Shown here one piece after another: positions 27,992 through 40,639 of a DNA stretch of 64,000 nucleotides. The notes beneath the pieces were generated by a model. That model worked only from the letters and a program-made list of their open reading frames with translations. It did not search any database and had not been told where the DNA came from. The stretch comes from Escherichia coli (lineage in GTDB: Bacteria > Pseudomonadota > Gammaproteobacteria > Enterobacterales > Enterobacteriaceae). The translations under genes were made by a program, and so were the position numbers. The stretch lies in assembly GCF_030013205.1 (NCBI RefSeq), contig NZ_CP122648.1; one strand, given 5' to 3'. Position 1 is the stretch's first letter. Each line of letters opens with the position of its first letter.

Positions 27992-28205
27992 TTAATTATT
28001 ATCATATTGATTTATATGTTATTTATTTTAGCCATCTTGTTTTTGTACCCGTTTTGTACCCGTTTTATTCTATTCCCAATTTAAACTTCGATTCTGGAAA
28101 GGTGAGTAGGGGAGGTTATCATTTTATGTATCATTGTTGTAGACACAGAATAATTACTCGCCTATCCTCACTGTATACACACCATAGATACAGGAGTTAA
28201 CCCAC

Positions 28206-28454
28206 ATGCGCACACAGGTTGTATTGCAAAAATGGGGTAACAGCATTGCCCTTCGACTAACGGGAAACCTTAAAACCGTTCCGGGTTTTTCAGTGGGTGA
28301 TATCGTCAACGTTGAAATTAGTGAAAAAGGGCTTTTTGTAGAAAAGCCTGCACGCCGTCGCCTGAGTGAAGCCGAACTACTCGCCGGGATAACGCCAGTT
28401 ACAGCGCACGCTGACGAAATTGCCACCCCATTCAATGAGGAGGTTGATTACTGA
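28206..28454 (+). CDS. MazE/PemI/ChpS-family antitoxin (AbrB/SpoVT fold)
   Basis: 82-aa ORF MRTQVVLQKWGNSIALRLTGNLKTVPGFSVGDIVNVEISEKGLFVEKP... Confidence 0.8.
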   Translation: MRTQVVLQKWGNSIALRLTGNLKTVPGFSVGDIVNVEISEKGLFVEKPARRRLSEAELLAGITPVTAHADEIATPFNEEVDY

Positions 28455-28798
28455 TGTTTGTACCTAAGCGTGGTGATATTTGCTGGCTGGATTTTGAGCC
28501 GCAGAAAGGAAAAGAGATCGGAAAGTATCGCCCGGCACTCATACTATCCCATGAGCAATATAACCGACTCACCGGGCTTGTCATATGCTGCCCCATAAGT
28601 ACGAGCATACGAAATGCTCCCACAGAAGTTCCGGTAACAAATCTGGACGCCCCCAGCGTGGTAGCAACCACACTCATTCAAACCCTTGACTGGCGTCAGC
28701 GGAAAGCGCGCTTAATCACAGAGGCAGAAGATGGGGTATTTAATGATGTGCTTGAAAGAGTCATTACTCTGATTGGTGGAGAGCATCTGCTTAAGTAA
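28454..28798 (+). CDS. MazF/PemK-family endoribonuclease toxin
   Basis: 114-aa ORF MFVPKRGDICWLDFEPQKGKEIGKYRPALILSHEQYNRLTGLVICCPISTS..., start overlapping the antitoxin stop. Confidence 0.8.
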   Translation: MFVPKRGDICWLDFEPQKGKEIGKYRPALILSHEQYNRLTGLVICCPISTSIRNAPTEVPVTNLDAPSVVATTLIQTLDWRQRKARLITEAEDGVFNDVLERVITLIGGEHLLK

Positions 28799-28841
28799 AA
28801 GGAGGGCTGAGAAGCCCTCAACGTTACCGGAAATTTCCTTG

Positions 28842-30113
28842 CTATTCTTTCCAGTCAATCCCATCCAGTAAGCACCCTGCCTCATATTGCCCCACCACCC
28901 AGTCAAGGTTACAGGACTCATAGAACGCGAGGCGATTATACTGAGGCTCGTTTTTTACCAGGCCACGAACGGAACCACGCTGCCAGTACAGACACAGATT
29001 GGCAAGAGGTGTGATCAATACAGCATTGTCCGGGAAAAATGGAACGGTCACAGCCGGGAGATTCCCCAGAACGGGATTTTTAATGATTTCCTCGTTAAGC
29101 AAAATTTCCTGATTCATCTGCGATGGATCAAGACGGTTTATCAAAGGCCATTGTTTACGGACCAGCGTATTGTGACTGCATACGGCCACAATGCCTTCCT
29201 GCCACTGTTCATCAATCATGGATTGCCAGGCATCCAGAACGAGCGCATCTATCGTATGGTGTGTACCGCGTATATTACTTTTCGGTGATGAGACAGAAAG
29301 GCCGCTGATAACCCTTCCCGCCGCTTCATTTCGAAACTTCTGCAACCAGCCCACGCCGCAATCGTCACGCCCCGGATATGTTCCGGGATCTGATACATCG
29401 GCATAGTGCGTACCGTTAAAACCAATCTGAATCAAATCCAGCCATTTCTGGCGTTCAAAAGCAGCCCGGGCGCTTCCTTCAAGACCGTTTGCGGATGCGT
29501 GAGCATCAACATTGTCGTAGTTCAGCGCAAAATCAAAATTAACCTGCTCGCAGCGGTAGCCCCTTGAAACCAGTGAATGCGCCTGTAGTGGCGAGCGGCG
29601 CTCGTGAGGTGGCGATGTACGTGCTAACGGCCCCGAAGCGTCTACCAGCACAACCTGACCTGATATATCCGTAACAGGCACGGGAGTTATTTCAGCAAGG
29701 AAATTTGCCTGCCATCCACTGGCAAGCGTTGCACTCTGGCGGGGGACGGGTTCAACTTCTGACGAATAGCGCGCAGTGTCACCGGAAAAGTGCAAATCCT
29801 TCGGATGCTTTCCGGTTATCGACTCGATAGCGCAATTGAAAACCATCTGAGACTGTTGATTTCGTTGTGATACAACAGAATCAGCAGTGCAATTATAACG
29901 CTCAATGCCGTCGTTATTACCCCCACCGCTTGCAGTATGCAGGGTGTGAAGCTCAAGCTCACGCTCCAGTTTTTGATATTCATTGTCCAGCGCGCGACGC
30001 GTCTCATCGCTTATGCTTGCTGTGTTTGCTTTCAGGCGATTCCGGGACATTAATCCCCTGAGTCGGCTCACTATATCAGCGCCGTGCAAATGTGGAGTAT
30101 TCAGACCGCCCAT
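28842..30113 (-). CDS. P2 gpN-family major capsid protein homologue with divergent N-terminal region
   Basis: Start taken at internal ATG 30113 (TAATG overlap with the upstream gene stop). C-terminal two-thirds align by eye with P2 gpN (...YRCEQVNFDF..., ...GWLQKFRNEAAGRV..., ...GNLPAVTVPFFPDNAVLITPLANL..., ...YESCNLDWVVGQYEAGCL...). Confidence 0.7.
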   Translation of the reverse strand: MGGLNTPHLHGADIVSRLRGLMSRNRLKANTASISDETRRALDNEYQKLERELELHTLHTASGGGNNDGIERYNCTADSVVSQRNQQSQMVFNCAIESITGKHPKDLHFSGDTARYSSEVEPVPRQSATLASGWQANFLAEITPVPVTDISGQVVLVDASGPLARTSPPHERRSPLQAHSLVSRGYRCEQVNFDFALNYDNVDAHASANGLEGSARAAFERQKWLDLIQIGFNGTHYADVSDPGTYPGRDDCGVGWLQKFRNEAAGRVISGLSVSSPKSNIRGTHHTIDALVLDAWQSMIDEQWQEGIVAVCSHNTLVRKQWPLINRLDPSQMNQEILLNEEIIKNPVLGNLPAVTVPFFPDNAVLITPLANLCLYWQRGSVRGLVKNEPQYNRLAFYESCNLDWVVGQYEAGCLLDGIDWKE

Positions 30114-38377: not shown

Positions 38378-38599
38378 TTAAGCCTGAAAACGTTGTTGTT
38401 TTCTTTCTTCTATCCAGTCGATAATTTCCTCTTCAACCCATGCAACCGCACGAGGGCCTATTTTTATTGGTTTGGGGAATATATCCGATTTTATATCTTC
38501 GTAAATTCGAGCTCTCGATCTCCCTGTGATTTCAATGACTCTGGGGAGTCTTATTAATTTTTGAATCCGCCTTTCGCTGGTCTGTGAGTATGCTGACAT
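38378..38599 (-). CDS. alpA: AlpA-family transcriptional regulator / excisionase
   Basis: 73-aa ORF ...RRIQKLIRLPRVIEITGRSRARIYEDIKSDIFPKPIKIGPRAVAWVEEEIIDWIEE..., canonical AlpA HTH. Confidence 0.85.
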   Translation of the reverse strand: MSAYSQTSERRIQKLIRLPRVIEITGRSRARIYEDIKSDIFPKPIKIGPRAVAWVEEEIIDWIEERKQQRFQA

Positions 38600-39198
38600 A
38601 TTGGCCTCCTGTATATGCTGAACACTTTACGTTAGCTCACAGTGGGAGCATGTAAGATCTCGCGGTCGTCTGCGGGACGAGAAAAATCATAAACAACGAA
38701 AAGCGGATTTGTAAATCAGGTCGATTTTTAGACGGGGTTGACATGGACAGTTAGATTTGTTCCATGCGTGAAATATACATTTAGAGCCACTTTAAACCAC
38801 CAGAAAGCGACAAAGAATAACAAGTTAGTGCCAGAAAGGTTTGCTGACTTACCCTTTTAGGCACCAGAAAAGCCCTTTCAGGTCGGTGTAATGCTTGTGA
38901 ACGCTGAAATAGTGGATTCTGAAAACAAAAAAAGAGTTGAAAATGTGATGTGCATCAAAAAATAATATCGATAAAACAGTTTGATTTTTATTTTCTTATC
39001 AAAAGCACTGGTTGATTATGGGAAATGCATTATAAATCAAATGGATATATCTATTTTTTTAGGTTAAAAATCACCAGGTGCTTTTAGTGAGGTCTTATTC
39101 TATTGATTTTAAAAGATAAAAAAATCGGCGTGTCCACATATTGTCCACGCCTTGAGTTTAATTCAGCCGCTTGGGGTAGTTTAGTTTGTTGAGTTGAT

Positions 39199-40461
39199 TC
39201 AGTTTGTTTCGTTAGCCCATTTAAAATCATAGGGGGCAATATATGCCGTCTTGCAGGTGTCGAGATAATCAGCCCACCATTGCAACATTCGGCGGCGTTC
39301 CTGCATATGTTCAGCTCTGTGAACGTATGCAGCCCGGACACTGCCTCTTTCCCTGTGACTCATCTGAAGCTCAACGGCTTCTCTTGTCCACCTGCCTGAC
39401 TCTGTCAGCGCCGAACAGGCCATGGCCCTGAATCCGTGACCACAAATATCTTTTTTGGTGTCGTATCCCATGTGGCGTAATGCCTTGTTAATGGTGTTTT
39501 CGCTCATCGGTTTTATCTGGTAATGGTCGCCGGGGAAAATAAACACTTCATCACCGGATATATTTCTTATATCGTCAAGAAGCTGCATGGCCTGAGTGGG
39601 TAAAGGGATGGCGTGAGGGGTCCCCATTTTCGTTCCACGATATGAATATTTTACGCCTTCTATTTTTTCGCGTTCTGCTGGTATTACCCACATTGATTTA
39701 TCAAAATCAATTTCATTCCAACGAGCAAAGCGCAATTCACTTGAGCGAATAAAAATTAATAAATTTAATTTTAGTGCAAATTGCGTTAATAACCGTCCAT
39801 TCATCTTATGGTGGTAATCATTTATTTTGCCAAGTAATTCAGGTAATCGCTCAAGGGGAAGAGCGGGGCGATGTTTGGTTTTATTGGTTTCTATTGCACC
39901 GTTCAGTTCCTGTGCTGGATTGTATTTAATCATTCCATTCTGTACAGCGTAGCGCATAATGGCGTTCATTCGCTGCTTGTTACGAGATGCTGTCTCAAGC
40001 ACTCCTTTATCTTCCATTTTGCGTAAAGGAATCAGTAGATCCATGGTTGTGATCTCGTTAATTGGTCTTTTACCAAGAATGGGGAAGATGTGGTTTTCCA
40101 GGTCTTTTAAGACTTTTTGTGCGTGCAATTCGCTCCAGCCTTTTTTCCGGCTGTGCCACTCTCTGGCAACGTCTTCAAAAAGCACTATTTGAGGTTTTGG
40201 AGTGTGCAGTGGGTCAATGCCTTTAGCCAGGCTCGCCAGATATTCATCACGAGCGTTCCTTGCCTGTGCAAGTGTTACGGCAGGATAAATGCCTAAAGCT
40301 CGGGTCGTTTCTTTACCGTTGATAACCTTGCGAAAGCGCCAGTATTTTGAGCCGTTGGGGTGAACATAGAGATACAGCCCTTTCCCGTCACGAAGTTTTT
40401 TAATTTTGTTGTTGTCCTTATCTGGTTTGGCGTTACGTACAGCTACATCAGTCAGTTTCAT
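39199..40461 (-). CDS. P4-family tyrosine integrase (DUF4102 N-domain), tRNA-adjacent
   Basis: Start taken at MKLTDVAVRNAKPDKDNN... (GGAGGA RBS about 9 nt upstream); catalytic ...HGFRAMACSALTESG...R...Y... region; immediately downstream of argW. Confidence 0.85.
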   Translation of the reverse strand: MKLTDVAVRNAKPDKDNNKIKKLRDGKGLYLYVHPNGSKYWRFRKVINGKETTRALGIYPAVTLAQARNARDEYLASLAKGIDPLHTPKPQIVLFEDVAREWHSRKKGWSELHAQKVLKDLENHIFPILGKRPINEITTMDLLIPLRKMEDKGVLETASRNKQRMNAIMRYAVQNGMIKYNPAQELNGAIETNKTKHRPALPLERLPELLGKINDYHHKMNGRLLTQFALKLNLLIFIRSSELRFARWNEIDFDKSMWVIPAEREKIEGVKYSYRGTKMGTPHAIPLPTQAMQLLDDIRNISGDEVFIFPGDHYQIKPMSENTINKALRHMGYDTKKDICGHGFRAMACSALTESGRWTREAVELQMSHRERGSVRAAYVHRAEHMQERRRMLQWWADYLDTCKTAYIAPYDFKWANETN

Positions 40462-40639
40462 TATGTTGCTCCTCCAGACGGGTACAAATAAAAATCGAAC
40501 CAAGCATACCCGTTTTTATACCCATTTTAATATGGGCTTCAGGCAAATTTAACGAGAGATAACGAGACAATGGAAGAGGTTTAACTCATTGAAAATCAAT
40601 GGGTAATGGTTTTTTCTGAGAGATTGCGAGAAGTTGCGA

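Follow-up and report, generated by a model that had tools for sequence, protein, structure and literature searches.

An argW island of Escherichia coli as a probable relative of satellite P4, with scaffold and capsid genes of its own and P88-like phages as likely helpers

The locus beside the tRNA gene argW in Escherichia coli raises the question of what an integrated island does with a phage-type capsid gene of its own. The island is 12.65 kb long and lies in a stretch of 64,000 nt (RefSeq assembly GCF_030013205.1, contig NZ_CP122648.1; the whole stretch is called the window here), which is 100 % identical to the chromosome of the porcine E. coli ETEC4079 (NZ_CP122643.1). Judging from sequence comparisons and structural models, it is probably an apparently intact P4-related satellite of P88-like phages, whose own pair of scaffold and capsid proteins would redirect capsid assembly. 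An earlier note, made from the sequence alone, had described it as a composite satellite-like island with modules normally found on the helper phage.

The limits of the island are set by attachment (att) repeats. argW (tRNA-Arg(CCT), 40640-40714, minus strand) was located with ARAGORN, the Rfam tRNA model (63 bits) and an alignment with K-12, and its 3' end, GATTCCTGCAGGGGACACCA (20 nt, 40640-40659), is the tRNA-proximal att repeat. At the distal end, the sequence and a three-way K-12 alignment gave a degenerate 19-nt copy, GATTTCTGCAGGGACACCA (27970-27988, minus strand), which reads GATTTCTGCA-GGGACACCA and is directly followed by DNA of the cryptic prophage CPS-53. In K-12, argW is joined directly to CPS-53, whereas in the window island DNA follows the tRNA gene instead, and the CPS-53 sequence beyond the degenerate repeat is about 94 % identical to the sequence abutting argW in K-12 (counted from the alignment). 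The alignment of both junctions therefore indicates a precise insertion between argW and the older cryptic prophage. Repeats and alignment agree with the earlier note in bounding the island by argW and a degenerate copy of its 3' end, but the start coordinate given there, 27992, lies 3-4 nt inside the true junction. A comparison of argW loci, which that note had suggested as a check, also supports a discrete unit: the K-12 alignment is exact, and in strain ECCNB12-2 the whole island is found at argW beside a different neighbour.

The capsid gene (28842-30113, minus strand) encodes a 423-residue paralogue of the gpN-family major capsid protein with an N-terminal extension of about 130 amino acids (aa). 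The Pfam family Phage_cap_P2 (PF05125) matches residues 132-419 with an E-value of 6.5e-73, and the protein is 35 % identical to P88 gpN. In Foldseek searches, its structural model best matched gpN in the P4 procapsid (PDB 7jw1, E 3e-23) and the capsid protein of the P2-like phage phiRSA1 (E about 1e-23). The protein thus has the HK97/gpN fold, in line with the gpN-family assignment of this open reading frame (ORF) in the earlier note. The TIGR01551 score is below the equivalog cutoff (131 vs 220 bits), which fits a divergent paralogue rather than an orthologue of phage gpN. The protein belongs to a separate clade of long gpN-family proteins (393-497 aa) that score apart from phage capsid proteins and occur in the Enterobacterales genera Salmonella, Klebsiella, Erwinia, Pectobacterium and Symbiopectobacterium. 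Unlike phage gpN, the proteins of this satellite clade have a conserved SGLSV motif, a shortened sir loop and no C-terminal tail. Their extension, variable in length and sequence, separates an alpha0-like start from a VxPxPxQ motif, the counterpart of the gpN maturation site in the alignment. In the island protein, a helical structure is predicted for the extension with moderate confidence, and hhalign found no match between it and gpO, Psu, Sid, gpN, gpM or gpQ. The ratio of nonsynonymous to synonymous substitution rates (dN/dS) against a sister island, a second argW island about 93 % identical overall, was 0.08, which corresponds to strong purifying selection. An identity as an encapsulin was considered since PF05125 is mentioned in an encapsulin survey, and was ruled out by the satellite context and the lack of a cargo gene.

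The gene directly upstream (30113-30823, minus strand) encodes a Sid-like helical protein of 236 aa, a putative external scaffold that determines capsid size. At default thresholds, Pfam, NCBIfam and PHROG gave no match to it, and a word-indexed search gave close relatives only. A full HMMER scan recovered a small, fast-evolving family of related proteins of 239-276 aa. Seven of the eight family members match phrog_6165 (P4 Sid) collinearly over the first 150 residues or so, with E-values from 8e-5 to 0.16, and the protein of the island itself does so with an E-value of 0.038. When the family was aligned with hhalign to a 16-member Sid alignment, residues 38-136 matched residues 41-139 with a probability of 77 % and an E-value of 2e-5. 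Comparison of the family by hhalign with gpO and Psu gave no match, and a relationship of the coiled-coil family to either was rejected.

The structural evidence points in the same direction. In the AlphaFold2 model (predicted local distance difference test score 93), two long helices (3-58 and 65-146) are followed by two short ones (150-163 and 166-179), then by a tiny helix and a helical region at the C-terminus. They reproduce the order published for Sid (PMC7552001), in which the stem is followed by the dimerisation knot, alpha5, the linker and the C-terminal helix. Among 350,542 PDB chains searched with Foldseek, the best match was P4 Sid (7jw1_E; template modelling score 0.49, E 0.11), with Psu in sixth place; weak E-values of this kind are typical of coiled coils. 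The C-terminal third differs from Sid and has a conserved motif of its own, PSPxQ...LAxGxExCRG. In Sid, the C-terminal part contacts the sir loop of gpN (PMC7552001). The dN/dS of the Sid-like gene against the sister island is 0.32.

Upstream of this pair, a single-domain zinc-finger late-gene activator of the Ogr/Delta type (60 aa) is encoded at 31273-31455 (minus strand). Its family assignment, already made from the sequence, is backed by phrog_603 (E 2.8e-10) and by 39 % identity to the N-terminal half of P4 delta; the dN/dS of ogr is 0.21. A conserved ORF of 77 aa (30989-31222) is located between ogr and the Sid-like gene on the plus strand, and its homologues in Pectobacterium, Erwinia and Salmonella keep both position and orientation. 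It is possibly a ribbon-helix-helix regulator, with weak CopG/RelB matches only (E 0.09-0.25). GTATTAC/GTAATAC motifs, including the dyad CGTAATAC-N14-GTATTACG, occur at 30840-31020 upstream of the Sid-like gene, and similar motifs are present in the Salmonella element (locus L010, about 8160-8530). They form a candidate operator that Ogr or the product of the 77-aa reverse ORF may bind.

In one variant of the satellite reading, shells would consist wholly of the satellite capsid protein, with the N-terminal extension acting as a propeptide in place of the gpO scaffold, and with portal, protease, terminase and tail supplied by the helper. This would be a minimal form of the strategy of phage-inducible chromosomal islands that form capsids (cf-PICIs) on a P4 chassis. 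The location of the extension before a VEPxPxQ motif in the aligned region of gpN maturation cleavage and its predicted helicity, reminiscent of the HK97 delta domain, are consistent with such a role. Both the C-terminus of the Sid-like protein and the sir loop of the capsid protein differ from P4 and P2 while being conserved in the satellite clade (PMC7552001). Furthermore, the start of the capsid gene overlaps the stop of the Sid-like gene (ATGA), an arrangement that indicates translational coupling of the two genes. Nevertheless, the portal, protease, terminase and head-tail adaptor genes that define cf-PICIs are missing (PMC10085698), the extension resembles neither gpO nor any other P2/P4 head protein, much of it is modelled with low confidence, and relatives differ widely in how long it is and in its sequence. 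We consider a shell made of satellite protein alone a possible but rather doubtful outcome.

Evidence for the helper comes from a packaging site. The segment 31685-31844 (plus strand) is a putative cohesive-end (cos) site of the P88 type. It is 82-84 % identical to P88-like phages, which match no other neighbouring sequence, and besides the second integrase gene (integrase 2) it is the sole part of the island that matches phage genomes at the DNA level; all of these phages are P88-like Peduoviridae (Xuanwuvirus, P2 family). Its counterpart in P88 lies about 300 bp past the stop of the portal gene, on the same portal side as cos in P2. The alignment between island and P88 consists of exact blocks, one of them 44 bp long, with unrelated sequence between them. 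A candidate cosN 19-mer, GGGCTGTTCCCCCGTCACC (31703-31721), agrees with P2 cosL at 13 of 19 positions and has an equal orientation relative to the portal gene. Four TTGTGCA repeats follow at 31746, 31818, 31828 and 31838, three of them spaced by exactly 10 bp, and also occur in the Erwinia and Salmonella elements. A cos site of the P2 type was ruled out, as the P2 cos 19-mer gave no match in the sequence at up to three mismatches. The P88-type region of portal and cos is present in about 20 % of E. coli genomes, and in strain TUM1880 such a region accompanies the satellite cos. At least one further cos-like place occurs in 38 of the 55 genomes with the satellite cos, and any such place in about 21 % of the remaining genomes (counted from a table of these places). 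In the genome studied here, a P88-like prophage is located between dmsA and serS (NZ_CP122643.1, 3272824-3293511; locus L022, 10825-31512), and its Ogr is 51 % identical to that of the island.

The cos site shares a non-coding stretch of 1.2 kb, between integrase 2 and ogr, with a putative replication origin (32060-32383, strand not assigned) recognised by its heptamer count. This origin has an AT-rich core with 13 GGTTACA iterons and a 42-nt inverted repeat. Thirteen of the 22 GGTTACA copies in the window fall inside 32086-32357, against an expectation of 6.7 across the whole 64 kb. The iterons have opposite orientations in the two halves of the AT-rich segment, and the two arms of the flanking inverted repeat are 95 % complementary. 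Since in the Erwinia and Salmonella relatives, which have no integrase 2, the primase genes are immediately followed by equivalent iteron fields (GGGTAACA, GGTGTAACA), the field is read as an origin, and the alternative of arm-type sites of integrase 2 was ruled out.

The primase-helicase gene (33633-36302, minus strand) encodes a protein with a Zn-ribbon, a Toprim domain (Toprim_2/Toprim_3 at residues 172-268) and a P-loop near residue 545. It matches phrog_1139 with an E-value of 4e-302, and its dN/dS against the sister island is 0.16. Its Toprim domain and P-loop are laid out as in P4 alpha, of which it is the predicted functional analogue. Among the relatives compared, only the primase of the Pectobacterium element belongs to the same family (53 % identity). 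As a separate observation, primase types are swapped within the family of elements: Salmonella, Klebsiella and Erwinia carry DUF927-type primases (loci L008, L010 and L014), and the module of ogr, Sid-like gene and capsid gene stays constant.

A further P4 trait is an antisense immunity RNA of the C4/CI family (37522-37609, minus strand). It matches Rfam model RF01695 over its full length with 79.7 bits (gathering score 45), and the P4 cI RNA scores 74.9 bits with the identical model. It is preceded by an isrK-like leader (37635-37729, also delimited as 37635-37716, minus strand; RF01394, 52.1 bits, gathering score 50; RF03163, 29 bits, sub-threshold) that contains weak a1/b1-type target sites for the C4 RNA. 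The order of isrK followed by C4 RNA is also found with both models at the cI locus of P4, and both models match the Klebsiella, Salmonella, Erwinia and E. coli relatives. Together with the cos site and the iteron origin, this RNA ties the island specifically to P4 and to P88-like helpers. The RefSeq annotation places a 175-aa Icd-like ORF (37297-37824) across the C4 RNA. Its NF033153 match (43.7 bits, cutoff 25) covers residues 127-168 only, and the coding sequence is probably a shorter ORF downstream of the RNA (37297-37470, minus strand; predicted start position). In a second E. coli sub-lineage (locus L012, 2077-3099), three tandem C4 RNA copies were observed together with an inverted ogr and a 711-aa DUF927 primase.

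Integration and excision would be covered by integrase 1 (39199-40461, minus strand), a P4-type tyrosine recombinase with matches to phrog_1 and the NF007246 domain. Over 417 aa, its identity to P4 Int is 52.5 % (blastp, E 1e-154), and its dN/dS against the sister island is 0.11. The AlpA/Vis-type excisionase-regulator (38378-38599, minus strand; phrog_2790 and phrog_66, excisionase/regulator) is 34 % identical to ORF88 of P4 (E 1e-12).

Integrase 2 (32629-33630, minus strand) is a full-length enzyme of the helper type (Xuanwuvirus/P2-like). It is 49 % identical to P88 Int, 87.5 % identical at the amino acid level to Int of vB_EcoM-569R5 and likewise to Int of P88-like prophages at the dmsA site, and 87.9 % identical to Int of the dmsA-serS prophage of the same genome. 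In the sister island the integrase 2 allele is quite different (dN 0.42; locus L019, 13793-14797 vs 32629-33630) and nearest to another set of Xuanwuvirus integrases. The gene thus behaves as an exchangeable cassette. Among the relatives, its slot holds an integrase in Klebsiella and in the second E. coli sub-lineage, hicAB in Salmonella, AIPR in Pectobacterium and nothing in Erwinia. The island has no helper-like attP for this enzyme, and the longest word in common with the helper att region is 13 nt. A recurrent helper-type integrase that swaps its alleles suggests an unexplored interaction between satellite and helper prophage.

All island ORFs named in the earlier note exist and are intact. 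The backbone of integrase, AlpA, small ORFs and primase-helicase was found as described, together with integrase 2, Ogr, the helical protein, the gpN-family protein and mazE/mazF, and scans of the island proteins with NCBIfam, PHROG and Pfam likewise gave no terminase, portal or tail genes, and no lysis gene either. The statement that all genes but two are co-oriented did not hold, since there are three plus-strand genes; the conserved 77-aa ORF had been overlooked. The view that these modules normally belong to the helper applies to the capsid gene and to integrase 2, which are helper-derived, whereas Ogr is the counterpart of P4 delta and the coiled-coil gene a remote counterpart of P4 Sid. 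The feature list lacked the immunity RNA with its leader, the iteron origin, the cos site and the Sid homology. Four functionally unassigned small ORFs (60, 62, 72 and 99 aa; 36349-37304, minus strand; RefSeq coding sequences) have equally placed homologues in the elements of Salmonella, Klebsiella, Erwinia and the second E. coli lineage.

The distribution of the island bears on whether these genes belong together. The combination could in principle be a chance juxtaposition of an inert P4/PICI-like remnant and a decayed fragment of a P2-like prophage, as tandem arrays of elements occur at argW, CPS-53 is immediately adjacent, and integrase 2 and the capsid gene have their nearest phage relatives in P2-family phages. 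However, the block from mazE through the Icd-like gene moves between att sites as one unit: other strains have it, at 98 % identity, in the hpt-gcd interval, where it is preceded by a different integrase module. The occurrence of the element at several att sites behind different integrases indicates recent mobility. Of 5,426 complete E. coli genomes, 56 carry the segment from ogr to the capsid gene, always at 95-100 % identity and in 55 cases at full length. In Klebsiella, Salmonella, Erwinia, Pectobacterium and a second E. coli lineage, a common order is conserved: P4-type integrase, AlpA, (Ash/Icd-like), small ORFs, an 890-aa primase, a variable slot and then the capsid module, itself ordered as Ogr, a reverse ORF of about 77 aa, a helical protein of about 240 aa and the capsid homologue. 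When compared pairwise with the window proteins, the helical protein of the relatives is 28-34 % identical, their capsid protein 42-50 % and their Ogr 44-51 %. Gene order is kept across five genera at protein identities of 28-53 %. In addition, the ORFs are all intact, no internal att repeat is present, and the capsid homologues form their own clade apart from phage gpN. The dN/dS values of 0.08-0.32 in the capsid, Sid-like, ogr and primase genes and the retained gpN fold suggest that the proteins are functional. Two unrelated remnants, which the earlier note had named as the result that would overturn its reading, are already contradicted by these findings, and we attach next to no credence to a chance juxtaposition.

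Several observations weigh against a P88-dependent satellite. The kinship with Sid is remote and limited to the coiled-coil stem, where spurious likeness arises easily, and no Ogr-type promoter (TGT-N12-ACA) was seen by eye upstream of the Sid-like gene. The primase, judged by sequence, is not orthologous to P4 alpha: blastp gave an E-value of 0.007 over 27 aa, and the D5_N and Pox_D5 domains are missing. No derepressor of the epsilon type was detected in the island: blastp gave no match to P4 epsilon, and the 99-aa ORF at the corresponding position upstream of the primase gene has no Pfam match in the Derepression family or any other. The co-occurrence counts of cos-like places are uncorrected for clonality, and part of the extra places may belong to second satellites. 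The position of the second cos-like place of the genome studied here was not found. The dmsA-serS prophage has a large internal deletion that fuses a fragment of a replication gene to gpO and gpN fragments, and it is left without replication, cos, portal, terminase and most head genes; this prophage therefore cannot serve as a helper by itself. Finally, an IMG/VR search for packaged forms gave only provirus predictions from isolate genomes and no particles.

The defective resident prophage also bears on another explanation, according to which the island is a defence island that is seldom, if ever, packaged. Its gpN paralogue and Sid-like protein would then serve mainly to poison the head assembly of incoming P2-family phages through co-assembly into dead-end shells and would protect the host population. 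An anti-phage function is common among satellites, and hicAB and AIPR abortive-infection genes are found in the variable slots of the relatives. The island itself carries a mazE/mazF-type toxin-antitoxin pair as accessory cargo at its distal end (28206-28798, plus strand; phrog_1936), with 92 bits for the MazF family and 21 bits for MazE, both under the equivalog cutoffs. mazEF is also found in the Salmonella relative and is missing from the Klebsiella, Erwinia and Pectobacterium relatives; like integrase 2, it occupies a slot whose content varies among relatives. With the resident P88-like prophage defective, transfer cannot currently depend on it, and strong purifying selection suits defence as well as transfer. 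On the other hand, a conserved helper-type cos site, an origin with a primase, an integrase with an excisionase and a genome of 35 % of the helper size are needless for pure defence and needed by a packaged satellite, and the recent mobility between att sites also speaks for transfer. PADLOC detected no known defence system in the island, and no PADLOC model matches the capsid or Sid-like proteins. Interference and transfer are not mutually exclusive. A purely defensive island appears unlikely.

A P4-related satellite with its own scaffold and capsid pair accounts for these features through the following cycle, in which all functional roles are assigned from homology. Integrase 1 and AlpA would insert and excise the island at argW, and the C4/CI-type antisense RNA, processed from the isrK-like leader, would silence the early operon as in P4. 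After activation, the Toprim primase-helicase would replicate the island from the GGTTACA iteron origin, and the Ogr/Delta protein would turn on late promoters of both satellite and helper. The coupled Sid-like protein and gpN paralogue would steer head assembly to small capsids that fit a genome of 12.65 kb. Here, the Sid-like stem would form the size-determining cage, and the divergent C-terminal domain would dock on the capsid protein of the satellite and not on that of the helper. The helper terminase would cut and package the island at the P88-type cos site, and the portal, the gpO protease and the head-completion and tail proteins of the helper would complete the particle. The gpN paralogue may form the whole shell or, by analogy with Ccm of the Staphylococcus aureus pathogenicity island (SaPI) SaPIbov5, only some capsomers. 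That capsids are remodelled by the island at all is what we infer from the pair of genes.

A broader interpretation is that the island represents an undescribed branch of P4 spanning several genera, in which Psu was replaced by a captured helper capsid gene that co-evolved with a Sid-derived scaffold as a private pair and builds small shells of its own, with a helper-matched integrase in some sub-lineages. This interpretation is tentative, and we find it plausible without favouring it. Capsid-size piracy has its textbook case in P4 and P2, where only helper capsid protein goes into the shells of the satellite. If the interpretation is true, small shells would form independently of the gpN allele of the helper, which would make the satellite immune to sir-type escape mutations, and the helper-matched integrase of some sub-lineages may have the helper prophage as its target, for instance as a source of Int for excision. 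A sister lineage with its own capsid paralogue and Sid-like scaffold would then be an intermediate between satellites that "steal" (P4, SaPI and the phage-inducible chromosomal island-like element, PLE) and those that "build" (cf-PICI). The island would also offer a tractable E. coli system for the co-evolution of scaffold and capsid and for the escape of satellites from helper resistance.

The surroundings of the island contain further foreign DNA. In tandem with it, a cryptic prophage remnant of the CPS-53/KpLE1 type occupies 14347-27808 and contains P22-like head and tailspike fragments, torI, a truncated terS, IS1 (21750-22447) and intS (26651-27808), as well as genes of low GC content (33-36 %) for O-antigen modification (gtrA, DUF2142 and glycosyltransferase genes). 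Further along, 8922-14267 holds a truncated dsdX followed by the csc sucrose-utilisation locus with a LacI-type regulator, cscA, a kinase and a transporter of the major facilitator superfamily. On the other side of argW, a hypothetical gene of 415 aa with 33-36 % GC (42950-44197, minus strand) is located between mlaA and fadL and looks like a small foreign insertion.

Regarding classification, P4-like satellites are described by seven core components, namely int, psu, delta, sid, alpA, epsilon and alpha (PMC8628076, PMC10085698), and SatelliteFinder calls a P4-like element when at least five of the seven core profiles are found (PMC10085698). The island is expected to show three or four of the seven, below the Type C limit. 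Since int, alpA and delta are clear, Sid is sub-threshold, the primase is non-orthologous, and Psu (no island protein matches phrog_6366 or Psu) and epsilon are missing, it is not filed as a standard P4-like satellite, nor is it filed as a PICI or cf-PICI. Current classifiers probably miss such islands, with the module in about 1 % of complete E. coli genomes and relatives in at least four other genera. No description of this gene combination was found in the searchable literature, the coverage of which is incomplete, and to that extent the earlier impression that it matches no described satellite family is upheld.

P4 is one of the nearest described systems. Both have a P4-type integrase at a tRNA gene, AlpA/Vis, immunity by C4/CI RNA with an isrK-like leader, a Zn-ribbon/Toprim/P-loop primase with an iteron origin, a helper-type cos site and an Ogr/Delta activator. 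The putative Sid-like scaffold has the same length and helix order as Sid, a variable accessory slot lies near cos, and the 12.65 kb of the island are 35 % of the length of P88, a ratio like that of P4 to P2. Two of its relatives, in Erwinia and Pectobacterium, carry the Derepression family (PF25738), and the Erwinia relative also has DUF5375, a family named for ORF106 in the P4 record. In contrast to P4, the island has no Psu, and a gpN-family capsid protein fills the place after the Sid-like gene. Its Ogr is a single domain of 60 aa as opposed to the double delta of 166 aa, the order is ogr, Sid-like and capsid instead of sid, delta and psu, and the early operon reads away from int in the fashion of PICIs. 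The non-orthologous primase, the undetected epsilon, the additional helper-type integrase and the P88-type cos are further differences.

With Gram-negative PICIs of the EcCICFT073 type, the island shares int, alpA, small genes and primase in one direction, a size of about 12 kb, a cos site instead of its own terminase and a site-specific integration locus. These PICIs, in the work of Fillol-Salom et al., are reported to parasitise lambdoid phages and to carry packaging redirection of the Rpp/Ppi or TerS type. Among the NCBIfam, PHROG and Pfam matches of the island, no such gene (terS, rpp or ppi) was found, and the island differs from these PICIs by its P2-family cos, its Ogr, Sid-like and capsid genes and its P4-type RNA immunity. 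A satellite-encoded HK97-fold major capsid protein is shared with cf-PICIs, which in addition have genes for portal, protease, head-tail adaptor and connector, as well as for terminase (PMC10085698). The island, in contrast, has only the capsid protein and its external-scaffold-like partner, and its capsid protein is of the gpN family of the helper. In SaPIbov5, the satellite-encoded capsid homologue Ccm sits in pentamers and sets the size and shape of the capsid (PMC8569155). Ccm belongs to a Gram-positive cos SaPI and to an unrelated sequence family, and it has no external scaffold partner and no such N-terminal extension. As a single satellite homologue of the helper capsid protein, it is nevertheless the closest mechanistic precedent for the gpN paralogue of the argW island.

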